From Myxococcales bacterium (GTDB taxonomy: Bacteria > Myxococcota_A > Polyangia > Polyangiales > Ga0077539), in assembly GCA_030652255.1 (NCBI GenBank), contig JAUSAZ010000005.1:6685-70684 (forward strand): a stretch of 64,000 bases of DNA, written 5' to 3'. Positions 9,291 through 48,321 of this stretch are shown one piece after another. The notes beneath the pieces were generated by a model. The model was given only the letters and a program-made list of their open reading frames with translations. It searched no databases and was not told the origin of the DNA. The position numbers and the translations under genes were made by a program. How positions within the stretch are numbered: the stretch's first letter is position 1; every line of letters starts with the position of its first letter.

Positions 9291-10145
9291 ATGATCGCCC
9301 TGGAGACCGCCTGCCTCGCCATCCTCGCGGCGTACTTCGTCGCCCACCGCCGGGAGCCCGCGCTGCTCCGCGACGCCCTGCTGCTCGGCCTCGGCGCGCT
9401 CGTCGGCGAGGACACCATGATCCGCGCGTACGGCTTCTACGGGTACTCGCCGGGCTGGCACCTCTTCGTCGACCGGGTGCCGCTGCTCATCCCGACCATC
9501 TGGGCGCCGGTGGTGCTCTCCGCCCGCGCCGTCTCCCGCGCGCTCCTGCGCACGACCGACGCGCCGCCGTGGAAGGAGGCCGCCCTCACCGGCGCGCTGG
9601 TCACCTTCGACGCGGCGCTCATCGAGCCCATCGCCGTGCGCGCGGGCCTCTGGCGCTGGACCCAGCCCGGCGTGATGACCGTGCCCCTCATCGGCATCGT
9701 CGGCTGGGGCTGCTACGCCTTCGCGGCGACGTGGCTGCTCGCCGCGCTGCCTCCCGCGCGGCGGTGGGCGATGATCCCGCTGGCGCTGGTGGCGTCGCAC
9801 GCGCTGGTGCTGGCGCTCTGGTGGGGCGCTCTCCGCTGGGTGCTGCGGGCCGAGCTGCCGCTGTCGACGACGGCGCCGGCGCTGGCCTTCTGCGCGACGT
9901 TGTACACGGTGGCGGTGCTGAAGACGGGCGCCCGGCTGCCGTGGCGCGAGCTGCTCCCCCGGGCGGCGGCGACGGGCTTCTTCGCGGTGCTGCTGGCGAG
10001 CCGGGCCGACGCGGCGATGGTGCTGTGGGCGGCCCTCTTCACGCCGCCGTGGCTGGTGTTCTGCGCGCGGGCGCTGCGGGCGTCACCCCCCGAAGACCAC
10101 CCGCCCGAACCTCGTCGACCGGTGGAAGTTCCCCTGACCCAGTAG
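9291..10145 (+). CDS. Membrane protein, carotenoid biosynthesis (CruF/DUF422-like) family
   Basis: YGFYGY...VPLLIPTIW, FDAALIEPIAVRAGLWRW and VPLIGIVGW match my recollection of this family; many TM segments. Confidence 0.65.
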   Translation: MIALETACLAILAAYFVAHRREPALLRDALLLGLGALVGEDTMIRAYGFYGYSPGWHLFVDRVPLLIPTIWAPVVLSARAVSRALLRTTDAPPWKEAALTGALVTFDAALIEPIAVRAGLWRWTQPGVMTVPLIGIVGWGCYAFAATWLLAALPPARRWAMIPLALVASHALVLALWWGALRWVLRAELPLSTTAPALAFCATLYTVAVLKTGARLPWRELLPRAAATGFFAVLLASRADAAMVLWAALFTPPWLVFCARALRASPPEDHPPEPRRPVEVPLTQ

Positions 10146-10853
10146 CGGCGACCACGCGAGCGAGTCGCGCTGCCCGTCCCTGAACGTGTACAGGTTCATC
10201 CGCCAGGTCTCGCCCGCCCTCGGCGGCGCGGTCACCCGCGAGGTGAGCACCGCCCCCCAGGGGAGCAGCATCTCCACCACGTAGCCGTCGCTGGTCTTCG
10301 CGGTGCCGCACTCCAGCGCGGGCTCCCACTCCTCGTGGCCGAAGTGCATCACCCCGCTCGGGTCGCGCCCGACGGGCCGGTTGTAGTCGTCGAAGCGCGT
10401 CGTCCAGCGCGCGCCGTTGACCCCCACCTGCACCTCGAAATAGTCCCGGTTGTCGCCGAAATCCCCGGGCTGCAGCATCAGCTCCACGCCCGACGCCCGC
10501 TCCCAGACGTGCGCGTCGCGCATCGGCGGCGGATAGGGGCTCTGCGCGTCGCGGTCGCGCACCTCGAAGGCCACGAGCAGCCCCGCGTCGCTCCACGCCA
10601 CGCGCGCGTCGCCGTTGACCCTCGACGCCGGCTCGGGCTGCCCCGTCGTCGGGTGCACGAAGCCCCCGACGCGCCGCGCGCTCGCCCACACGGGCTCGTC
10701 CAGCCGGCCGTCCCAGCGCACCGCGCCCGTCACCCTCGGCGCCGTCACCGTCGGCAGCGTCCCGTCGGCCCGGGAGACCACCGCCGTCGCGGGCGGCGCG
10801 TTGCCGCGGCACCCGAGCGCGGCGGCCAGCACCAGGGCGAGAGCAGGGCGCAT
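10083..10853 (-). CDS. Lipoprotein with CBM9/DOMON-like sugar-binding domain
   Basis: Lipobox ALGC; WDGRLDEPVW, AWSDAGLLVAFEVRD, GVELML, YFEVQV, GETWRMNLY; TGATG overlap with the upstream acylase. Confidence 0.8.
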   Translation of the reverse strand: MRPALALVLAAALGCRGNAPPATAVVSRADGTLPTVTAPRVTGAVRWDGRLDEPVWASARRVGGFVHPTTGQPEPASRVNGDARVAWSDAGLLVAFEVRDRDAQSPYPPPMRDAHVWERASGVELMLQPGDFGDNRDYFEVQVGVNGARWTTRFDDYNRPVGRDPSGVMHFGHEEWEPALECGTAKTSDGYVVEMLLPWGAVLTSRVTAPPRAGETWRMNLYTFRDGQRDSLAWSPLLGQGNFHRSTRFGRVVFGG

Positions 10854-14147: not shown

Positions 14148-14792
14148 TCACTCCGCCGCGAGGTCGCCGAGCGCGACCCCGAAGGCCCGCTCGAAGAGCC
14201 CTGGCTCGTCGCGCAGGAAGCGGTAGCTGCGGTCCTGGCGCAGCATGCCCACGACCACGCTGCGGCTCTGCCACCCCGGCCAGCGCGCCCGCAGCATCGC
14301 CGCGTCGCGCACCACGGCGGCCGCGTCGCGGCGCTGGCACCCCACCGCGATGAGCCCGAGCAGCGCGAACTCGTTGAGCGGATCGATGCTGAGCGCGAGG
14401 GCGTATCCCTCCCGCGCCCGGTCGAGGTCACCCTCCTCGAAGCTCGCGGTCGCCGCGTTGGCGGCGCAGGTGCCCCGGAAGCTCGCGTCGTCGCTCAGCG
14501 CCATCGCCGCGGCGTACCCGGCGCGCGCGTCGTCGTAGCGCCGCTGGTAGTGCCGCCCGATCGCCGCGTACAGCACCGCGTCGGGGTCACGCTCCCACCC
14601 CGCGGAGCGCTGCGCGCGCGCCACGCCCTCGTCGAAGCGCAGCGCGCGGTAGAGCGCCGAGCACTCCTCCTTCAGCGCCGGGTCGACCCCGGACTCGTCA
14701 GGCACGTAGACGTCGTGCGCCTCGACGTGGGCCCGGCGCAGCAGCGACGCGCGTACGTCTCGCGAGGGCGGCTGTAGCTCCTTCGACTTCAC
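14148..14792 (-). CDS. TPR-repeat protein
   Basis: Helical repeats (DAVLYAAIG...YDDARAGY, NAATASFEEGDLDRAREGYALALSIDP) and a DRSYRFLRDEP tail; GTGA overlap with the upstream gene. Confidence 0.75.
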   Translation of the reverse strand: MKSKELQPPSRDVRASLLRRAHVEAHDVYVPDESGVDPALKEECSALYRALRFDEGVARAQRSAGWERDPDAVLYAAIGRHYQRRYDDARAGYAAAMALSDDASFRGTCAANAATASFEEGDLDRAREGYALALSIDPLNEFALLGLIAVGCQRRDAAAVVRDAAMLRARWPGWQSRSVVVGMLRQDRSYRFLRDEPGLFERAFGVALGDLAAE

Positions 14793-15439
14793 GGCGCCTC
14801 CCGGTCGGCGACCATCAGGCTCGTGACGGTGCCGCGCAGTCGTGCCACGGCGCGCGACACCGTCGGCTCGGAGAGGCCCACCATCCGGGCGATCTCCCGC
14901 TGGTCGTGGCCGCCCGCGAGGCCGCTGAGCACCCGCCCGTCGCGCTCGTCGAAGCCCGGCGCCGACCTGAGGCGCTCGAGCAGCTCGCGCAGGTGCGTCT
15001 CCCCGTCGGGGGCGTCGCCGCGGCTCGGGGGCTCCGGGCCGTCGCCGTCGTCGGGCGCGCCCGCGGCGCCCCGGGTGAGGGCGTGCCTGCGGTCGAGGGC
15101 CGCGCGGCGCTGTCGGGTGCGGCGCATCGCGCGGAGCTGGTCACGCAGCTGATCGGCCACCAGCATCGCGAGGGAGCGGGTGATGACGCCGCGCGCGACG
15201 CCGTCGAGCCACGCGCCCACGGAGCGCTCGTACGCGAGGGACATGCACGCCCCGCGGGCCTCGTCGGCGCCCATCACGTCGCGGAACTCCCGCGCGACGC
15301 GCTCGCACTGCGGGAGCAGCGCGTCGAAGAGCGCCTCCCACCCGTGGCCCGTGCGCTCCAGGTCTTGCAGCCACCCGGCGAGCGCGGCGGCCTCCGGGGT
15401 GCCGGGCGCCCGGCGGATCCAGTCGGTCAGGTCTTCCAT
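14789..15439 (-). CDS. Divergent sigma70/ECF-like or LuxR-type HTH regulator
   Basis: C-terminal HTH ERDGRVLSGLAGGHDQREIARMVGLSEPTVSRAVARL; region-2-like helices are poorly conserved; ATG at 15439. Confidence 0.7.
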   Translation of the reverse strand: MEDLTDWIRRAPGTPEAAALAGWLQDLERTGHGWEALFDALLPQCERVAREFRDVMGADEARGACMSLAYERSVGAWLDGVARGVITRSLAMLVADQLRDQLRAMRRTRQRRAALDRRHALTRGAAGAPDDGDGPEPPSRGDAPDGETHLRELLERLRSAPGFDERDGRVLSGLAGGHDQREIARMVGLSEPTVSRAVARLRGTVTSLMVADREAP

Positions 15440-15459
15440 GGGTGTGTCCGCGCGCCCGC

Positions 15460-15828
15460 TCAGCGCCCGCCGCCGCCGATGCCGACGGACGCGGTGGTGT
15501 ACGACCCTCCCGGCAGGTCGCCGCCCCCGCCCGAGACCTTCATCGACTCCGCGCGCTCCGGCGGCAGCCCGGCGAGCAGCAGCGCCTCGACCGCCCCGCT
15601 CGCGTGCACCGCCATGCTCCGGTCGTCGAAGAAGAGCCACCAGGTGCGCTGGCCCGCGGCGTCGGGCGCCGAGACCAGCGCCGTCACCTCCGTCGCGGTC
15701 GCGGGCGCGTCCGCCGACGAGCGGGTGGCGTCGGGCTCGACCGCACAGCCCTGGAGCGCGGCGGCGAGCGCCATCGCCCCCAACATCAACAGCGCACCGC
15801 CCCGTCGCCCCGCCACGCCCCTGCTCAT
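15460..15828 (-). CDS. Small hypothetical lipoprotein
   Basis: Signal peptide ending LQGC; 122 aa; first gene of the lipoprotein-HTH-TPR run. Confidence 0.6.
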   Translation of the reverse strand: MSRGVAGRRGGALLMLGAMALAAALQGCAVEPDATRSSADAPATATEVTALVSAPDAAGQRTWWLFFDDRSMAVHASGAVEALLLAGLPPERAESMKVSGGGGDLPGGSYTTASVGIGGGGR

Positions 15829-15909
15829 CGTCGTCCGTCCCTTCGTGGTCACCGCGCCCGTCGCGGGTGCTGATTCTCTCCCCGATACGGGGCCACGAAC
15901 CGACCCGGG

Positions 15910-15944
15910 ATTTCACCCTCGACGAATTATCTCGTCGATGAAAT
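15910..15944. promoter_or_regulatory. AT-rich dyad between divergent genes (candidate operator)
   Basis: ATTTCA-ccc-TCGACGA-attatc-TCGTCGA-TGAAAT. Confidence 0.45.
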
Positions 15945-40689: not shown

Positions 40690-41025
40690 CTACGGCGCGT
40701 GCCACTCCACCGCGGTGCCCACCATCCGCACGCGGCCGCCGCGCAGGGGCCGCGCGTCCACGTCCACCACGGCGTCGGCGTTGGCCTCGCACGCGGCCCG
40801 CTGGAGGGCCGTGCGGCACTGCTCGGGGTGGGAGTCGCTGCACTCCGCGGTGACCACCGCGATGGCCTCGCGCGGGGTCGACGGGCCGTGGTCGGTGTGC
40901 AGCGGCGGCGCGGCGCAGGCCTCGGCGCGCGGGGTGCGCCGCGCGTTGATCATACGGAAGTGATGGGAGGGGCCGCTCGAGCAGCCCAGCGAGAGGGCGA
41001 GCGCCAGGAAGACCGTCGGTCGCAT
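40690..41025 (-). CDS. Small hypothetical lipoprotein
   Basis: Lipobox LGC; 111 aa; ACEANADAVV motif. Confidence 0.65.
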   Translation of the reverse strand: MRPTVFLALALSLGCSSGPSHHFRMINARRTPRAEACAAPPLHTDHGPSTPREAIAVVTAECSDSHPEQCRTALQRAACEANADAVVDVDARPLRGGRVRMVGTAVEWHAP

Positions 41026-41059
41026 GCCGCGCAGGATGCGCGATGCGCCCCGCGGGCGT

Positions 41060-42253
41060 CTAGCGTCCGCGGTGGTGGCGCCCGCGCGCGGGCTCGACCG
41101 GCGGCGGGGGGGCTGGGGGCGGGGGCGGGGGCGGCGGGGCGAGCACGGTCGGCGGCTCGACGGGCGCGTGCACGCAGCGGAACCCGAGGGTGGCCAGGCG
41201 GAAGGCGGGGTTGGCCGGGACGCGCGCGGTGGTGCGCAGCGCGGCGGCGGTGCCGGAGTACCAGTGCCCCCCGCGGGCCACGCGGTTGGTGCCCCCGGCG
41301 GCGCCGGTGGGGTCGGTGGCCGGGGCGGCGGTGTAGAGGCCGAACCAGTCGCCGGTCCACTCCATCACGTTGCCGGCCATGTCCAGCACGCCGAAGAGCG
41401 AGGCGCCCGGGGTGAAGGCGCCCGCCGGGGCGGTGGCGCCGTGCGAGTCGCTGCCCGGGAGCGACGCCGCGGGGCGCGACAGGTTGCTGCGGGTGAGCAA
41501 CGCGATGCAGTCGGCGTCGCAGGCGTTGACCCGGTCGAGGGAGGGCGCGGCCTCGCCCCAGGGGTAGGTGCGGGTCTCGGCCCCGCGCGCGGCGAACTCC
41601 CACTCCGCCTCGGTGGGCAGCCGGCCGCCGCGAGAGCGGCAGTAGGCGTTGGCCTGCGACCAGTCGACGCAGTTCATCGGGTGGTCGGCGCGGTCGGCGC
41701 GGTTGCCGTTGCAGAGCTGGTTCCAGGCGGGAAGCTGCGGGGCGGGGATGGCGGGGAAGTTCACCGTCGACGAGGTGGTGCACTGCCCCGAGGTGGCGCA
41801 CTCCTGGTAGCGGTGCGCGGAGACCTCCGTGCGGTCGATGCAGTACGGCGCCAGGGTCACGCGGTGCGCGGGCGTCTCGTTGCGGTCGCCGCTCTGGCCC
41901 GCGGCGGCGCCCATGTTGAACACCGGGTTGTCCATCAACACCATGCCCTCCGGGCAGCGCGACGGCGGCGGCGGCGGAGGCATCGGGACCGCCACCGGCG
42001 GGGGCGGCGGTGCGGCCGCGAGGGCGGCCTGACGGCAGGCGTCCGCGCCGTCGACGCACATGCAGCGGTCGCGGGCGGGCACCCACTCCTCGCCGCCAGC
42101 GCAGCAGTGGCCGTCGGAGTCGTGCTGGGGCGCCGCGCACGCGGCGGGCGGGGGGCGCCGGCGGTGCTGCGCGTGCGCAGAGGCGCCGAGCAGGGTGACC
42201 GCGCCGAGGAGGGTGGTGAGGGTGGACCGATAGTTTGGACGGAAGGATCTCAT
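41060..42253 (-). CDS. Formylglycine-generating-enzyme (SUMF1/FGE-sulfatase) domain secreted protein
   Basis: YCIDRTEV, GGRLPTEAEWEFAARG, DMAGNVMEW, RGGHW, LGFRC; signal peptide and Pro-rich linkers. Confidence 0.9.
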   Translation of the reverse strand: MRSFRPNYRSTLTTLLGAVTLLGASAHAQHRRRPPPAACAAPQHDSDGHCCAGGEEWVPARDRCMCVDGADACRQAALAAAPPPPPVAVPMPPPPPPSRCPEGMVLMDNPVFNMGAAAGQSGDRNETPAHRVTLAPYCIDRTEVSAHRYQECATSGQCTTSSTVNFPAIPAPQLPAWNQLCNGNRADRADHPMNCVDWSQANAYCRSRGGRLPTEAEWEFAARGAETRTYPWGEAAPSLDRVNACDADCIALLTRSNLSRPAASLPGSDSHGATAPAGAFTPGASLFGVLDMAGNVMEWTGDWFGLYTAAPATDPTGAAGGTNRVARGGHWYSGTAAALRTTARVPANPAFRLATLGFRCVHAPVEPPTVLAPPPPPPPPAPPPPVEPARGRHHRGR

Positions 42254-42371
42254 GGTGAAGCTCCGACGGAGGACAGGGCGCAGGCGTTCAACATCACTCC
42301 CGCCCCGGGTGCAAGGGCCCCGGCGGACGTCGTTGACACTGTCCCTCCGGGGGGTGCTTATTGCGCCCGCC

Positions 42372-43136
42372 ATGGCGGTCAACGGATCTGTGAAGGTATT
42401 TCTCTCGGCCCTCTGTCTCGCGGGCGCGCTCGGGTGTTCATCCAACTCCCCGCCGCCGCCGTCGGACGCGGGCGTCGTCGACGCGGGCGAGGACGCGGGC
42501 GACGTGCCGCTCTTCGTGGGCCCCGGCGACCTCACGGTGACCTGGACCATCAACGGCAACCCCCCGGAGACCGAGTGCGCCGTGGCGGGCGCGGCCTTCG
42601 TCGCCATCCAGGCCACCTTCGGCGCCGCGACGCGGCTGCCCTGCACCCAGGGGATGTTCTCCAAGCTGATGCTGCCGGCCAACCGGCTCAACGTCGGGGC
42701 GAAGCTGCTGCGCGCCGACGGCACGTCCATCTACGAGTACGTCATCCCGACGACCATCGTCACCGGCGTCACCACCACGGCCAGCATCAACTTCGAGCCG
42801 CCGGGCAGCCTGCGGGTGCGCTGGACCGTCAACGGCAACGCCCCCAGCAGCGAGTGCGCCACCACCACGGCGACGCACGTCATCGTCCGGGCCGAAGGGC
42901 TCGACGGCTTCCAGGCGACCTGCGCCACCGGCCGGGTGAGCTTCACCCGCGTGCCCGGGGCGATGCTCACCGGGCTGCAGCCCGGGCGCTACGCCGTCAC
43001 CGGCGAGATCGTCTCCGGCACCGGGTCCAACCGCCGCTCGATCCAGACCCTCATGGGCGAGGCCGAGGTGCCGTCGGGCGCCGTCGGCGAGGTCGTGCTG
43101 CCCTTCGAGGCGCCGCCGCTGCCGGTCGATCCGTGA
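42372..43136 (+). CDS. Hypothetical lipoprotein with two repeated beta domains
   Basis: Lipobox LGC; internal repeat GDLTVTWTINGNPPETEC / GSLRVRWTVNGNAPSSEC. Confidence 0.75.
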   Translation: MAVNGSVKVFLSALCLAGALGCSSNSPPPPSDAGVVDAGEDAGDVPLFVGPGDLTVTWTINGNPPETECAVAGAAFVAIQATFGAATRLPCTQGMFSKLMLPANRLNVGAKLLRADGTSIYEYVIPTTIVTGVTTTASINFEPPGSLRVRWTVNGNAPSSECATTTATHVIVRAEGLDGFQATCATGRVSFTRVPGAMLTGLQPGRYAVTGEIVSGTGSNRRSIQTLMGEAEVPSGAVGEVVLPFEAPPLPVDP

Positions 43137-44182
43137 GCCTCCCCCCCGCGGAGGTGCTCGCGCGCTACGCCGGCTTCGAGGCGGCCGCCGCGCGCCCCTA
43201 CGGCCGCGGGCTCATCAACGACACCTTCCTCCTCGAAGCCCCATCGGGGCGCTGCGTGCTCCAGCGGCTGCACCCGGTGTTCGGCGCGGCGGTGCACCAC
43301 GACATCGAGGCCGTCACCGCGCACCTCGCGCGCAAGGGGATGGTGACGCCGCGGCTCATCCCCACCCGCGACGGCGCGCTCTGGGTCGAGCGCCCGACGC
43401 CCGAGCGCACCGAGGTGTGGCGGGCGCAGACCTTCCTCCCCGACCTGGTCACCTACGACCGCCTCGCGCGCGATGACCACGCCGCCGCCGCGGGCGCGCT
43501 GGTGGGGCGCTTCCACAGCGCGCTGCGCGACCTCGACCACGAGTACCGCTTCGTGCGGGCGGGCGTGCACGACACCCACGGGCACCTCGCCACCCTCGCG
43601 GCCGCCGTCGAGGCCTCGCCGGGGCACCGGCTCTACGAGGAGGTGGCGCCGCTGGCGGAGATGATCCTCGCGGCGGGGCGCTCGCTGCCCGACCTCACGG
43701 GCCTGCCGAGGCGCCACAGCCACGGCGACCTCAAGCTCTCCAACCTGCTCTTCGACGCGCGCCGCGAGGGGGTGTGCCTGGTCGACCTCGACACCGTCGG
43801 CCGGATGAACCTCGCCTTCGAGCTCGGCGACGCGCTGCGCTCGTGGTGCAACCCCTCGGGCGAGGACGCCACCGACTGCGCCATCTCCGCCGAGCGCGTG
43901 GGCCTCGCCGTCGCGGGCTACGCGAGCGCCGCGCGCGACCTCGTCGATCCCGCGGAGGCGGAGTCGCTCGTCGACGGGCTCGCGACGATCTGCGTCGAGC
44001 TGGCCGCGCGCTTCGCCGCCGACGCCCTCCTGGAGCGCTACTTCGGGTGGGACCCGTCGCGCCACCCCTCGCGCGGCGCCCACAACCTGGTGCGCGCGCG
44101 GGGCCAGTGGTCGCTCGCGCGCAGCGTGCTGGCCGACCGCGCGGGGCTCCAGGCCCGGGTCGCGGCGGCGATGTCGGCGTAG
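43133..44182 (+). CDS. Aminoglycoside-phosphotransferase-fold kinase (N-acetylhexosamine kinase-like)
   Basis: GRGLINDTF, HGDLKLSNLLF, VDLDT, LGDALRSWCN. Confidence 0.88.
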   Translation: MSLPPAEVLARYAGFEAAAARPYGRGLINDTFLLEAPSGRCVLQRLHPVFGAAVHHDIEAVTAHLARKGMVTPRLIPTRDGALWVERPTPERTEVWRAQTFLPDLVTYDRLARDDHAAAAGALVGRFHSALRDLDHEYRFVRAGVHDTHGHLATLAAAVEASPGHRLYEEVAPLAEMILAAGRSLPDLTGLPRRHSHGDLKLSNLLFDARREGVCLVDLDTVGRMNLAFELGDALRSWCNPSGEDATDCAISAERVGLAVAGYASAARDLVDPAEAESLVDGLATICVELAARFAADALLERYFGWDPSRHPSRGAHNLVRARGQWSLARSVLADRAGLQARVAAAMSA

Positions 44183-44206
44183 GCGGGCTCTGGTAGCGTC
44201 CGGCGG

Positions 44207-44701
44207 GTGGTGCGACCCATCCCCGACCGGTGCCCCTGCGACGCGGGGCGGAGCTACGACCAGTGCTGCGGACCGTTCCACCGCGGGGAGCGCGAGGCGC
44301 CCGACGCGCCGTCCCTGATGCGATCGCGCTACAGCGCCTTCGCCCGCGGCGACGAGGACTACGTCCTGCGCACGCTGCACCCCGACCACGCCGACCTGGA
44401 GGAGGGCGTCGAGGCGATGCGGGCGTCGCTGCGCGACACCTTCCGGCGCAACCGCTACGAGGGCCTGCGGGTGCTCGACCAACGGCCCGCGGGGAGCGAC
44501 GGTCTCGCGGAGGTGCTCTTCCAGGCGCGGGTGCGGGAGGGCGGGGTCGACCGGTCCTTCGTGGAGCGCTCGTACTTCGCGCACGACGGGGTGGGCTGGC
44601 GCTACCTCGCGGGCGACCTGCTGCCCGCGGCGGCGCTGAAGGGCCGCATCGAGGGGCTCACCCTCGACGCCTTCTCCCGGGCGCTGGAGTCCGCGCGGTG
44701 A
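44207..44701 (+). CDS. YchJ family (SEC-C motif) protein
   Basis: CPCDAGRSYDQCC, LMRSRYSAF, ERSYF, WRYLAG. Confidence 0.9.
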   Translation: MVRPIPDRCPCDAGRSYDQCCGPFHRGEREAPDAPSLMRSRYSAFARGDEDYVLRTLHPDHADLEEGVEAMRASLRDTFRRNRYEGLRVLDQRPAGSDGLAEVLFQARVREGGVDRSFVERSYFAHDGVGWRYLAGDLLPAAALKGRIEGLTLDAFSRALESAR

Positions 44702-45942
44702 CGGCCCCGGCGCTCACCCGAGGGCAGTCGTGGGCCCTGGTGCTCGCGGCGACCTTCACCATGACCATCAGCTACATCGACCGGCAGGCGCTGGCGGTGC
44801 TGGCCCCCACGATCACCCGCGAGCTGCGCCTCTCGGAGACGCAGTACGGGCTGCTGGCGTCGGCCTTCTCGCTCGCGTACCTGATCGGCGCGCCCTTCGC
44901 GGGCCGGTGGATCGACCGGGTCGGCGCGCGTCGCGGGCTGCTCGCCGCGGTGCTGGTCTGGACGGCGGCGGCGGGTCTGCACGCGCTGGCGCCGGGCTTC
45001 GGGGCGCTGGTGGTCTTCCGGGTGCTGCTGGGCTTCGCGGAGTCGCCGTCGTTTCCGGGCGCGTCGCAGGTGGTGCACCGCGCGCTCTCGCCCGGCGACC
45101 GGCCGCGGGGTGTGGGGGTGCTGTTCACCGGGAGCTCCATCGGCTCGATGATCGCGCCGCCCATCGCGGTGGCGCTGCTGGGGGTCTTCGGGTGGCGCGG
45201 GGCGCTGCTGGTGTCGGCGCTGAGCGGGCTGGTGTGGGTGCCCCTCTGGATGGGCGTGGCGTGGCGCTCGCCGGGCCGCGAGGTGCTCGACGCGGCGCCG
45301 GAGCCGGCGGAGCTCACGGCGGCGGGCGAGGCGTGGAGCGCGTGGCGCTCGCCGGCGGTGCGGCGGACCCTGGCGCTCATCATCGCCTCGTCGCCCGCGA
45401 TCGGCTTCGTGCTGACGTGGAGCGCGAAGTACCTCGTGCGCGCGTGGGGCGTGACGCAGGTGGGGGTGGCGGCGTTCATCTGGCTGCCGCCGTTGATGTT
45501 CGACGTGGGGAGCGTCGCGTTCGGCGACCTGTCGGCGCGGCTGGCGAAGCACCCGAGCAACGCCCGCGGCGGCACGCATCCGGCGCTCATCGCGGCGAGC
45601 GCGTCGCTGGCGGTGGGCGCGACGCTGGCGATGACCGCCGCCACCTCGCCATGGATGGCGATGGGCTTCGCGGGCGCGGCGATGTTCGGCGGCGGCGGCA
45701 CCTACGCGATGATCACCGCCGACATGCTGGCGCGCATCCCGGCGCGCGGGGTGTCGACCGCGGGCGGCTGGTGCGCGTCGGCGCAGGCGCTGGCCTTCGT
45801 GGTGGCCAACCCCCTCATCGGGCGCGGCGTGGAGGCCTACGGCGGGTATCGGCAGGTGCTGGCGGCGCTGGCGCTGTGGGTGGTGCCGGGCACGCTGGCG
45901 TGGCTGGTGTGGCCGCGGGTGCCGCCGGTGCGCGCGGGGTAA
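44698..45942 (+). CDS. MFS transporter (ACS/hexuronate-like)
   Basis: ISYIDRQAL, GRWIDRVGARRG, RVLLGFAESPSFPG; about 12 TMs. Confidence 0.92.
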   Translation: MTAPALTRGQSWALVLAATFTMTISYIDRQALAVLAPTITRELRLSETQYGLLASAFSLAYLIGAPFAGRWIDRVGARRGLLAAVLVWTAAAGLHALAPGFGALVVFRVLLGFAESPSFPGASQVVHRALSPGDRPRGVGVLFTGSSIGSMIAPPIAVALLGVFGWRGALLVSALSGLVWVPLWMGVAWRSPGREVLDAAPEPAELTAAGEAWSAWRSPAVRRTLALIIASSPAIGFVLTWSAKYLVRAWGVTQVGVAAFIWLPPLMFDVGSVAFGDLSARLAKHPSNARGGTHPALIAASASLAVGATLAMTAATSPWMAMGFAGAAMFGGGGTYAMITADMLARIPARGVSTAGGWCASAQALAFVVANPLIGRGVEAYGGYRQVLAALALWVVPGTLAWLVWPRVPPVRAG

Positions 45943-45976
45943 AACGAGGGGCGGCGAGGGTGGTACGGTGCAGGCG

Positions 45977-47080
45977 ATGAGTCCGCCGGATTGGAAGAGT
46001 CTCTCGCCCCAGGAGCCTGCTCCCAGAGATGGCTACGTCAGTCGCCCCGACTCGGTGTGGGAGCGGGTGTTGAAGCGGCTGGATCAGGGCCTCGCGCCGA
46101 TCGCCATCGTCGGTCCGTCGGGAGCGGGGAAGAGCACCGAGCTGGTTGAGGTCGCTCGAATGCTCACCCCACATCGGCTCGTAGCACCGTGCCTGCAGGA
46201 TCATGTGCAGAACCCGAGCGTCATGGCGTTCCAGGGAGAGAAGCTGCTTGTCCTCGCTGCCTCGATGCTCATTCACAGATGCCAGGGCGCCTCTCTCGCC
46301 CTTTCAGACTCGTTCATCCATCGTTGGATCGTGTCCGCACAGCCCGGAGCCTTTGAGGCTCTTTCACCGCTATTGGCTTCGCCCGTCGATGCGATGCGAG
46401 AGCTGATCGCGGAGCTCAAGACCTTGCGCGGAAGCGAACGTCCATTGGTCCTGCTCGACGGACTCGAACGTCAGGATGACGCTGCGATTCGCAGCAGCCT
46501 CGACGCCTTCCGCCCATTCCTGACCTCGCTCGATCTCGTCGTGGTCCTCCCGGCGCGATGGACCAGCGACGACGCATTCTCCTCTGTGCTCGACGGCTAC
46601 CGCATCGAGGCGCTGCGCCCGCTGCCAGTGCGCGCCGAGCACGGTCCATCGTGGCGAGAGGGCCGTGCCTTCCTGACGCAGATCGTCTGCAAGCGCCTCG
46701 GCATCGCGGCCCCACCCGCCGCCGCGGTCGCAGTGCTCGATCGCGCCGCGGAGGCCAGCGGAGGCGTCCCGCGGGTATTCCTCCAGCTCGTCCAGGATGC
46801 TGCCTTCTACGCTTCGATCACGGGTCGCGAGTGGCCGAATGAAGACGATCTGCGCCAGTCGATGCGCGACCAGGTGAGCTCGCTGCGCCGCCTCCTGCGC
46901 CCGGGCGACCTCGCGGCACTTCAGTCCGCTCGCGGTACCGATGGCCTGGAGGTCGACGTCGAGCGGCGCATCCGCTTCCTGGGGCACGGCCTGCTCCTCG
47001 AGTACGGCGAGGCCGAAGACACTCGGGTGTTCCCGACGCCGCTGCTGGAAGGGATCCTCGCGCTCCGGGCCGCGGCGTGA
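45977..47080 (+). CDS. P-loop ATPase (AAA+/STAND-like)
   Basis: Walker A GPSGAGKST, Walker B LVLLDGLER, helical lid SGGVPRVFLQLV and LLLEY; start 45977 or 45968. Confidence 0.88.
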   Translation: MSPPDWKSLSPQEPAPRDGYVSRPDSVWERVLKRLDQGLAPIAIVGPSGAGKSTELVEVARMLTPHRLVAPCLQDHVQNPSVMAFQGEKLLVLAASMLIHRCQGASLALSDSFIHRWIVSAQPGAFEALSPLLASPVDAMRELIAELKTLRGSERPLVLLDGLERQDDAAIRSSLDAFRPFLTSLDLVVVLPARWTSDDAFSSVLDGYRIEALRPLPVRAEHGPSWREGRAFLTQIVCKRLGIAAPPAAAVAVLDRAAEASGGVPRVFLQLVQDAAFYASITGREWPNEDDLRQSMRDQVSSLRRLLRPGDLAALQSARGTDGLEVDVERRIRFLGHGLLLEYGEAEDTRVFPTPLLEGILALRAAA

Positions 47081-47652
47081 GTCGCTCCAACGCGGAGCTC
47101 GGCCGCCTCGCCGCCGAGGGACGCCCCCTGGCGGTGGTGTTCTTCCGTGACCTCGATGAGCGCGAGTCCCTCGCCGGGCTGCTCGATCTGCTGCTCCCCG
47201 ATGGCGCCTCGATGCGACGCGTCGCCGGGCTTGCTCCGGTGTTCGATCCGGCGACCTTCGACCAGACGCTGGCGGTGTTGCTCCCCGATGCGGCCTCCGA
47301 GGAGGAGGCCGTCGGCGAACTCGAACGCCGCCGCGACGCGCTCATCGCCCGTCGGGCGACCGCGGTGCTGTTCTTTCCCGTCGGAGGAGCCGCCGCGCGT
47401 CGACTGGGCGAGACACCGTCGCTCGCGAGCTGGCTGCGAGGTCAGATGTACACATCGGGAGTTGACGAGCTCGACCCCGACACTGGCCACGACGAGGACT
47501 TCGACCGAGCCCGAGCGGCATTCGAGGCGCGCACCCGGCAGACCCCCGAGGCGTGGTGGGAGGCCTGGACCCGCGGAGTGATCGAGTCGACGCTGGTCAA
47601 TCACCTGCTCGCGGTCGAGGCCGAGCGCCTCTGCATCGAGCCGCTCGCATGA
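47077..47652 (+). CDS. Hypothetical alpha/beta protein, possible inactive NTPase-like partner
   Basis: 191 aa; GTGA and ATGA overlaps on either side; LERRRDAL...VLFF...PSLASW; no Walker A. Confidence 0.75.
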   Translation: MSRSNAELGRLAAEGRPLAVVFFRDLDERESLAGLLDLLLPDGASMRRVAGLAPVFDPATFDQTLAVLLPDAASEEEAVGELERRRDALIARRATAVLFFPVGGAAARRLGETPSLASWLRGQMYTSGVDELDPDTGHDEDFDRARAAFEARTRQTPEAWWEAWTRGVIESTLVNHLLAVEAERLCIEPLA

Positions 47653-48209
47653 GTCGTTGGACGAGCCTTCGAGAAGAGATCGACCGCGCGCGAAGAGACC
47701 AGCCGCGCTACGACCTCACGCGGGTTACCGGGGTCATCAAGCGCCTTGGTGACCGCGGCTATTGCGACAAGAGTGCGAAGCACTGGCTGTCGGAAGTCAA
47801 CGGACCAAAGGGTATGACGATCCGGGCCTGGAGCAGGAGCGCCGACGCCTTCGACAATCGCGGTCACCACGCTCTGCGGCTGAAGGCGTTGCGGTTCCTC
47901 GCAGACGGCGCGAACGCGTCCATGCCCGATCACCTGCGCCTGGGGCCGGTGCTCTCGCTCCGCGTGGTGATGGACCGCGCCGGGCGCCTTCGAGAGTTCA
48001 GCGTCGGGATCGATGGAGCCTGTCGTGGCACCACGGAGGGTGCGGTCGGCTCGCGCTGGTACGCCCGTGTCGACCTGACCGAGACACCCGAAGGTCAGGG
48101 TGACTGCGGTCACCCGCTGCTCCACGCGCACATCGGCGACGACCCCGATGACGTGCTCTCGCCGCGCGCTCCGCTTCCGTGGATGTTGCCGCACGAGGCG
48201 CTGGAGTAG
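47649..48209 (+). CDS. Hypothetical protein with RVD...HPxxHxH motif; frame may extend to 48251
   Basis: ATG 47649 overlaps the upstream TGA; WYARVDL...CGHPLLHAHIG; 186 aa to TAG 48207-09. Confidence 0.75.
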   Translation: MSRWTSLREEIDRARRDQPRYDLTRVTGVIKRLGDRGYCDKSAKHWLSEVNGPKGMTIRAWSRSADAFDNRGHHALRLKALRFLADGANASMPDHLRLGPVLSLRVVMDRAGRLREFSVGIDGACRGTTEGAVGSRWYARVDLTETPEGQGDCGHPLLHAHIGDDPDDVLSPRAPLPWMLPHEALE

Positions 48210-48260
48210 CTCCTCGCGACGGTCGATCCGGCGCTCGAACCCGCTCCGTAGCCTCGCGGC

Positions 48261-48277
48261 CCCCGCCTTCGGCGGGG
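48261..48277 (+). terminator. GC-rich hairpin after the ATPase operon
   Basis: CCCCGCC-TTC-GGCGGGG, a 7-bp stem 10 nt after TAG 48251; no U-tract. Confidence 0.4.
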
Positions 48278-48321
48278 CGCCGCCGGGTGAGCGCTCGTGC
48301 TAACAAGCCCCTCAACCCGAC

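Follow-up and report, generated by a model that had tools for sequence, protein, structure and literature searches.

In a 64,000-nucleotide stretch of a Myxococcales bacterium contig (JAUSAZ010000005.1; hereafter the window), three short genes form a cassette, the trio, that is conserved and translationally coupled in Myxococcota and that we put forward, with moderate confidence, as a candidate anti-phage or anti-mobile-element module around a minimal STAND-type nucleoside triphosphatase (NTPase). A role in defence or conflict is favoured because of the linkage of the three genes, the intact NTPase and two recombining surfaces, together with foreign-like codon usage, patchy distribution, frequent loss and repeated nesting in bacteriophage exclusion (BREX) operons. 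An initial annotation of the window had proposed a defence module with a sensor, a switch and an effector. The genomic behaviour of the trio is indeed of the conflict type (patchy, low in GC at third codon positions (GC3), hypervariable, inactivated and BREX-embedded), whereas the sensor and effector roles are kept here as proposals. The window copy carries a nonsense mutation and therefore matters mainly as a pointer to the family.

The three open reading frames (ORFs) lie on the + strand at 45977-47080 (gene 1), 47077-47652 (gene 2) and 47649-48209 (gene 3). Gene 1 overlaps gene 2 in a GTGA start/stop junction (47077-47080), and gene 2 overlaps gene 3 in an ATGA junction (47649-47652). Upstream, a 34-nucleotide spacer separates the gene 1 ATG at 45977 from the stop codon (45940-45942) of an MFS gene (Pfam MFS_1, E 1.5e-45), with a GTG at 45968 as an alternative start. 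The initial annotation had placed the junctions and the spacer at these same positions, and its hand counts of G and C, 36/60 and 34/60 within 46201-46320 against 44/60 at 45001-45060, proved exact. Overall, the trio has a GC content of 68.1%, compared with 75.4% upstream, 76.5% downstream and 74% for the window, and its minimum (57-63%) falls inside gene 1. The in-frame GC3 of the three genes (0.78-0.83), the low ratios of nonsynonymous to synonymous substitution rates (dN/dS) in genes 1 and 2 and an order conserved in 53 loci indicate genuine genes rather than chance ORFs of a 74% GC genome. The features of the locus are listed below.

45977-47080, + strand: gene 1, 367 residues (370 from the GTG at 45968), a sensor-less STAND/AAA_16-like P-loop NTPase
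46112-46135, + strand: Walker A, GPSGAGKS, residues 46-53; G46, G49, G51 and K52 invariant in 37 sequences
46202-46426, + strand: hypervariable gene 1 segment, residues ~76-150, between Walker A and Walker B; lowest GC, 57-60%
46445-46468, + strand: Walker B, LVLLDGLE, residues 157-164; D161 and G162 invariant, L163 and E164 at least 90% conserved (37 sequences)
46757-46789, + strand: SGGVPRVFLQL, GxP-like helical-lid motif, residues 261-271
47077-47652, + strand: gene 2, 191 residues, no family assignment; N-terminal half alpha/beta, C-terminal half three helices
47649-48209, + strand: gene 3 as readable now, 186 residues against an ancestral 200
47758-48053, + strand: hypervariable recombined gene 3 segment, codons ~37-135
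48093-48137, + strand: signature G-x-G-x-C-x-H-x3-H-[C/A]-H-x-G of gene 3, residues 149-163; probable metal site
48207-48209, + strand: nonsense TAG in place of the conserved Trp187 TGG; single G-to-A change at 48208
48210-48251, + strand: relic C-terminal tail of gene 3, LLATVDPALEPAP, 13 codons, plus the ancestral stop TAG at 48249-48251
48256-48283, + strand: GC-rich hairpin after the operon; a 60-nucleotide piece folds at -38.7 kcal/mol

Protein searches returned 40 homologues of gene 1, five of gene 2 and seven of gene 3. A profile search of 1.84 billion representative proteins found 109 members of the gene 3 family, all short standalone proteins or fragments apart from one 3963-residue protein whose eight weak stretches are probably spurious. 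We gathered 72 loci, from contigs carrying the exact proteins, a scan of GTDB genomes (13 loci) and a scan of Joint Genome Institute metagenomes (42 loci), and searched them with three protein profiles (hmmsearch). The order gene 1-gene 2-gene 3 is kept in 53 distinct loci (handles of the form L001 denote members of the 72). The remaining gene 3 loci end at contig edges, none having another gene in front of gene 3, and start/stop overlaps recur in L001, L007, L012 and L030. Where gene 1 relatives have a partner, the next gene is always a gene 2 homologue of about 175-191 residues (more distant ATPase families were not searched); three orphans, L008, L009 and L011, are without partner genes. 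According to the initial annotation, ATPases of this type are as a rule followed by a long TPR protein whose N-domain carries an L..RRD.L...W motif; no examined gene 1 relative is. All named hosts are Myxococcota (Archangium, Byssovorax, Polyangiales, Polyangiaceae, Chondromyces, Enhygromyxa and one Myxococcaceae metagenome-assembled genome (MAG)), and two further MAGs stand under old proteobacterial labels. The distribution is narrow and patchy, with all 13 GTDB genome matches assigned to Myxococcota or to older delta-/proteobacterial labels.

Compared with PADLOC-DB v2, Pfam, NCBIfam and PHROGs, the trio corresponds to no named system, in agreement with the initial annotation; P-loop matches apart, these libraries returned nothing for its three proteins or for distant trios. 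In PADLOC-DB v2.0.0, queried with three trios and three further gene 1 homologues, no component was significant; genes 2 and 3 had no match at all, and what gene 1 matched, mad3 and mad8 (E 0.02, or 8.5e-05 for L013), was of P-loop length only. The literature that could be searched does not describe the trio, its two partner families, its split architecture or its nesting in BREX; an NTPase-centred conflict module is, as a type, already known.

Gene 1 carries the Walker A and Walker B motifs that the initial annotation had judged intact, and these are invariant in 37 aligned homologues at the glycine, lysine and aspartate residues listed above. The same alignment contains a conserved N-terminal DWxxLxPHRPL motif and, further downstream, the lid motif SGGVPRVFLQL, in which S261 and G263 are invariant and G262, P265, R266, F268, L269 and Q270 are at least 90% conserved; its label as a STAND GxP motif was assigned by inspection of the sequence. 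The last ~100 residues, after the lid motif, are conserved and end in HGLLLE, and a poorly conserved insert sits between Walker A and Walker B. In Pfam, the gene 1 family gives weak but consistent signals for AAA_16, nSTAND1, nSTAND_NTPase5, NPHP3_N and NACHT. The window protein itself stays below threshold for AAA_16 (E 6.7e-05, 23.9 bits against a gathering cut-off of 32.6) and nSTAND1 (E 0.061, under the curated threshold); many relatives have precomputed PF13191 matches, with weak or faint PF25199, PF24883 and PF05729 as well, so that a STAND-type family signal is present though weak. A sequence-profile search of the PDB returned P-loop matches only. No repeat sensor (TPR, WD40 or LRR) or fused effector was detected in gene 1, which ends ~100 residues past the lid motif. 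We read gene 1 as a minimal STAND-type NTPase module, free of a fused effector or repeat sensor, which may end in a winged helix.

Gene 2 has no P-loop and no match in Pfam, NCBIfam, PADLOC or PHROGs. Its AlphaFold2 model shows four beta-alpha units followed by three helices (predicted local distance difference test score (pLDDT) 77.5, from an alignment of only six sequences), and the best PDB folds are weak (E 0.1-0.6) and RecA/AAA-like: Mfd, DDX3, RIG-I, ORC5, a clamp loader and NorQ. In this model the resemblance to RecA/AAA-like domains is suggestive at most. The initial annotation had described gene 2 as an inactive partner; the absence of Walker motifs holds, whereas an origin as an inactive ATPase draws on weak fold matches, the best at E 0.1. 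Across 34 sequences, R86, S118, F149, W160 and A182 are invariant, and the protein carries L-x3-R-[DE], in the window LERRRDAL. The idea that gene 2 is a decayed duplicate of the ATPase domain in gene 1 was rejected as unsupported (hhalign probability 0.2%), and DUF4780, matched by 11 of the 34 homologues in a permissive Pfam scan (best E 0.004), was judged spurious. In comparisons with BrxB/iSTAND, Pfam and PADLOC gave no BrxB match, and the fold search gave only the weak RecA/AAA-like hits (best E 0.1). Residues ~141-185 (47497-47631) resemble an AraC/Ada helix-turn-helix, F..tG.tPe.W...WR, and the best PDB sequence match is Ada (1wpk, E 0.087, below significance), which hints at DNA binding by the C-terminal helices.

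Gene 3 divides into a variable N-terminal part of 140 residues and a conserved C-terminal part of 60 residues, as judged from 79 full-length representatives. The conserved part holds the signature, R173-x-P-x-P, W187 and E197-P198, the named residues being 91-100% conserved. Within the signature, C153 is conserved in 95%, H155 in 99%, H159 in 99% and H161 in 95%, and position 160 is a cysteine in 78%; the window version reads CGHPLLHAH. The model (pLDDT 75.5, predicted template modelling score 0.75) has two N-terminal helices, a beta-sheet and a C-terminal helix at 181-192, with the motif loop at pLDDT <50. Searches of Pfam, NCBIfam, PADLOC and PHROGs gave no match, a permissive Pfam scan of 50 members found nothing recurrent, and a PDB sequence-profile search returned zero matches at E 10. 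With Foldseek, the best values were E 0.5 against the PDB and E 0.14 against BFVD, none reaching E 0.001. HNH/His-Me, cupin, MBL, JAMM and HIT enzymes likewise gave no profile or fold match, and the motif, compared by eye, fits none of them. The His-rich site proposed in the initial annotation is thus present and conserved; the enzyme-like effector role attached to it is an inference, with no family or fold match. To us, the Cys/His cluster looks like a metal centre, whether catalytic or structural, and the variable middle has more the look of a specificity or sensor element.

The stop reported in the window gene 3 is a TAG at 48207-48209 that replaces TGG through a single change relative to five aligned relatives (L027, L028, L014, L029 and L001), all of which have TGG at this codon. 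Across the gene 3 family, 97% of members keep W187, and seven close homologues continue to WLLATVDPALEPAP. The change removes the last 14 residues, including W187, E197 and P198, each >90% conserved, and since these belong to the conserved tail, the window copy is probably inactive or hypomorphic. The relic tail (48210-48251) keeps its frame and 90% DNA identity with relatives; as its codons are unspoiled, the change would be recent or possibly a sequencing error. The same TGG-to-TAG change at the same conserved Trp codon occurs in the L042 gene 3 (10001-10600, stop 10508-10510), which shares only about a third of its residues with that of the window. Tryptophan is one of the few codons one step from a stop in GC-rich genes, and the recurrent Trp stops (the window and L042 in gene 3, L036 in gene 2) may be coincidence or a recurrent off-switch.

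Two parts of the trio behave as mosaics, apparently exchanged by recombination between alleles that are nearly identical elsewhere. Of the stretch 43006-48253, blastn aligns all but the gene 3 segment 47758-48053 to L014, L002 and L029, the flanks of the segment being 85-93% identical; against L014, DNA identity is 87.5% over 43006-47757 and 90.5% over 48054-48253. The synonymous rate (dS), 0.22-0.34 in genes 1 and 2 and elsewhere in gene 3, reaches a saturated ~2.0 in the segment, where dN/dS is 0.36. Positive selection in situ was considered and rejected, dS rising together with dN (dN/dS 0.36-0.43); the pattern points to divergent alleles that were either brought in by recombination or maintained for a long time. 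In gene 1, the segment 46202-46426 is only 36-48% identical to L029, compared with 88-100% in the flanking parts of the gene, and cannot be aligned to L001 by blastn. It is swapped in L029 and unswapped in L014, so the gene 1 and gene 3 segments vary independently. For genes 1 and 2 against close relatives, dN/dS is 0.12-0.15, as under purifying selection. In the GTDB loci L014-L026, trio GC3 is 0.69-0.83 nearly throughout (≤0.90 in L023), against ~0.8-0.98 in most flanking genes, and low trio GC3 is also the trend in the examined loci L042-L072.

About a dozen copies of the trio have been broken, independently of one another, including that of the window (gene 3 nonsense). The others comprise L042 (gene 3 TAG), L036 (gene 2 stop at a conserved Trp), L027 (gene 2 frameshift), L029 (408-nucleotide deletion in gene 2), L063 (gene 2-gene 3 deletion fusion), L019, L023, L045 and L055 (gene 3 split) and L026 (gene 1 split).

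In the window lineage, the trio follows YchJ and the MFS gene in a syntenic arrangement shared by L002, L014, L027, L029 and L072. The initial annotation had called the trio inserted; the dip in GC is real, whereas the synteny across six related contigs and the lack of repeats, tRNA or mobility genes do not bear out an insertion, searches of the window locus with Rfam and for tRNAs and flanking repeats all being negative. In other lineages, the neighbours are AsmA, alpha/beta hydrolase, PAP2, Uma2, GlnD, histidinol dehydrogenase, adenylate cyclase, a Macro-domain protein, acyl-CoA dehydrogenase, WS/DGAT, MatE, acetate kinase, bestrophin, a radical SAM protein and VgrG.

One subclade sits inside BREX. 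In six contigs (L030, L012/L031, L032, L033, L037 and L038), the trio lies between pglX and pglY of a type-2 BREX operon, some of these loci being visible only as far as the contig extends. L030, an Enhygromyxa MAG, holds a complete BREX locus in the order HTH_17, a 239-residue gene, PglW, PglX, gene 1, gene 2, gene 3, PglY, PglZ, BrxD, BrxHI, with the PglX stop overlapping the gene 1 start. L042 looks like a decayed BREX locus, because HTH_17 and the first 58 codons of PglW directly precede its trio; in L046, a PglW-like gene lies 4 kb downstream. The 64 kb of the window contain no BREX gene detectable by tblastn with the L030 BREX proteins, and PglZ, PglX and PglY accompany the trio in the embedded subclade only. 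Defence systems are over-represented among the genes found inside BREX, DISARM, restriction-modification (RM) and Hma loci (bioRxiv 10.1101/2024.01.29.577857; PMC12839542), and embedding in BREX, RM and Hma loci has been used successfully to predict new ones (bioRxiv 10.1101/2024.01.29.577857). The trio genes are not among the type-2 BREX components or auxiliary effectors of a recent BREX survey (PMC12839542).

Several points weigh against a role in defence. Such a role is here a prediction from sequence and genomic context. No toxic or nuclease domain can be recognised in any of the proteins, no mobility genes lie near the trio, and no relative occurs among IMG/VR viral contigs. Standalone trios are mostly found between housekeeping genes, outside defence islands. 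Since the BREX-embedded copies make up a single subclade, one ancient event and a role specific to BREX may account for the embedding. The models of genes 2 and 3 were built on alignments of 6-7 sequences (pLDDT 75-78), with the gene 3 motif loop at low confidence. Assembly errors may explain some of the frameshifts in metagenome contigs, but not the deletions and nonsense codons.

A more specific version of the defence reading, which we hold tentatively and find clearly less secure than the general one, makes the trio an autonomous, undescribed anti-phage system in which gene 3 combines a new Cys/His metal-centre fold with a recombining specificity region, and which was recruited into Pgl/type-2 BREX as a second layer in some Myxococcota.

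The best-surviving alternative, unlikely in our view, reverses this dependence: the trio would be an accessory or regulatory module of Pgl/type-2 BREX, such as an extra sensor or loader acting on PglX or PglY, and the standalone copies would be remnants of lost BREX loci or act in trans with a distant BREX. It would explain the exact placement between pglX and pglY in six contigs with the stop/start overlap on the PglX side, the co-divergence within the embedded subclade (54-76% identity for gene 3, 64-79% for PglX and 72-91% for PglY) and the resemblance of L042 to a BREX locus that lost PglW and PglX and kept the trio. BREX itself, moreover, uses active and inactive STAND/ORC-like modules, namely BrxB, BrxD and the PglW C-terminus (PMC12839542). 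However, most loci with 6-10 kb of flank, and the 64-kb window, are without a BREX gene, and standalone copies are still under purifying selection. Type-2 BREX in 1309 taxa has been described without the trio genes (PMC12839542), and genes 1 and 2 match none of the BrxB, BrxC and BrxD models of PADLOC and Pfam. Autonomous systems, moreover, are embedded in the same manner, DarTG here and PARIS and BrxU elsewhere.

Less probable still is a selfish, toxin-antitoxin-like addiction cassette, or a stress module regulated by the NTPase, neither of which would act against phages. A cassette kept by post-segregational effects, and often decaying, could be as small, compact and translationally coupled as the trio, with contexts that vary, low GC3, frequent pseudogenisation of single components and neither a nuclease nor a known defence domain that could be detected. 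Two of the three proteins, however, have recombined hypervariable segments, which point to recognition of a diversifying external partner; the repeated placement in BREX operons is typical of defence genes, and no copy was found on viral contigs (IMG/VR; plasmid collections were not searched). Least of all do we expect a housekeeping metal-handling or maturation module, in which the NTPase, gene 3 as a Cys/His metallochaperone and gene 2 as an adaptor would bring metal to a client enzyme: systems of an NTPase with a small-protein metallochaperone exist and the C-x-H-x3-H-C-H cluster of gene 3 resembles a metal-binding site, but no conserved client metalloenzyme lies beside the trio, whose neighbours differ in almost every lineage, gene 1 is STAND/AAA_16-like rather than a G3E/CobW-type GTPase, a housekeeping function would hardly be expected to show hypervariable recombined segments and frequent loss, and the trio is embedded in BREX operons.

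Returning to a defence module, we propose that a component derived from an invader would be recognised by variable surfaces, those of gene 3 and perhaps also those of gene 1, and that this recognition would license NTP-dependent switching or oligomerisation of gene 1. Gene 2, as an alpha/beta protein without a P-loop followed by a small helical domain, might bridge gene 1 and gene 3 or bind nucleic acid. The conserved C-terminal half of gene 3, with its C-x-H-x3-H-C-H cluster, R-x-P-x-P stretch, W187 helix and E-P tail, could be the output activity or a docking element coupling it to gene 1 or gene 2. Recognition by variable surfaces, gene 1 as the switch and the gene 3 core and tail as output or docking are all inferences.

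If the trio does act in phage defence, it would be a minimal STAND system in split form, with sensor and effector each on a small protein of its own and of unknown fold, and would add two new protein families, neither with a Pfam entry. The allele-swapped segment of gene 3 offers a natural handle on specificity, and the repeated pglX-pglY placement a testable link to the poorly understood mechanism of Pgl/type-2 BREX. Myxobacterial immunity has been little explored experimentally, and a tractable three-gene system would be useful there. The cassette is credible and unusually well delimited; candidates of such kind are numerous.

Other genes beside trio loci deserve mention. In L031 (1526-4449, equivalent to L012:429-2150), a DarT-Macro (DarTG) pair lies between PglW and PglX of a trio-bearing BREX locus, so that this operon hosts two embedded cassettes. 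A 979-residue protein with HD-CE and GHKL (HATPase_c_3) domains follows the trio in L046 (10833-13769) and L047 (4576-7515) and may be another defence gene; the PglW-like NERD-kinase gene of L046 comes after it, at 14508-15920. Directly after the trio of L013 (8338-9750) is a 470-residue protein with PTS_2-RNA (Tpt1/KptA) and microbial PARG domains, suggesting ADP-ribose or RNA 2'-phosphate chemistry of the conflict-system kind. Upstream of the Chondromyces apiculatus gene 1 homologue P0044 are a 559-residue AAA_21/AAA_15 ATPase and a 323-residue protein, which resemble a two-gene ABC-ATPase defence pair.

In the window itself, the hairpin that the initial annotation saw closing the operon exists as a GC-rich stem-loop (48256-48283), but was not called by a terminator scan because it has no U-tract or T-run. 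Relatives have an extra 1.35 kb between window positions 48253 and 48272 (blastn). In close relatives, a 1.35-kb minus-strand lipoprotein gene directly follows gene 3 (442-462 residues, lipobox LAACG, no Pfam match; L014:10579-11933, L002:4480-5837 and L029:5944-7301); it is missing from the window, where the junction (48254-48271) adjoins the hairpin. With native GC3 and absence from other trio loci, this lipoprotein was rejected as a component of the system. The window ORF 41024-44182 and other very long ORFs on both strands belong to the many overlapping all-frame ORFs that are artefacts of 74% GC; of 41024-44182, the C-terminal part alone looks genuine, with an APH-like HGDLKLSNLLF motif and a syntenic L029 gene annotated as PF01636.

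Among known systems, the trio is closest in its NTPase to the STAND/NLR-like proteins of Avs/AVAST and bNACHT, with which gene 1 shares a P-loop NTPase domain, Walker A and B motifs, a GxP-like lid motif and perhaps a winged-helix end, and the locus is likewise fast-diversifying, patchy and of the conflict type. Unlike Avs/NLR proteins, gene 1 has only ~370 residues and neither a fused N-terminal effector nor a C-terminal TPR, WD or LRR sensor; the presumed sensor and effector roles fall to two separate small proteins of unknown fold, and no PADLOC Avs/NLR model matches. With Pgl/type-2 BREX (PglW, PglX, PglY, PglZ, BrxD and BrxHI), the embedded subclade shares an operon physically, and BREX also pairs active ORC/STAND-like ATPases (BrxC and BrxD) with inactive STAND modules (BrxB and the PglW C-terminus; PMC12839542), but the trio is not a described component, and most copies, including that of the window, have no BREX gene nearby.

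The embedded autonomous systems (BrxU/GmrSD, PARIS, HEC and PDC candidates) are similar in being short cassettes nested in a larger system and also standalone. They use ABC/OLD ATPases and TOPRIM, HNH, PIN or HEPN domains, none of which is detectable in the trio, and PADLOC-DB v2.0.0, which covers the embedded candidates reported in bioRxiv 10.1101/2024.01.29.577857, does not contain the trio. The ternary NTP-dependent conflict systems (Kaur, Burroughs, Iyer and Aravind 2020, PMC7159879) combine MoxR-vWA pairs with VMAP, iSTAND or FtsH, or use GTPases, and add recognisable effector-associated domains; Pfam finds no MoxR, vWA or effector-associated domain in the three trio proteins. In organisation, however, the trio resembles them: like these systems it has three components, is NTPase-centred and is found in myxobacteria, which belong to the multicellular bacteria where they are enriched, and they share with it diversifying components and, if gene 2 is one, inactive enzyme-like partners.

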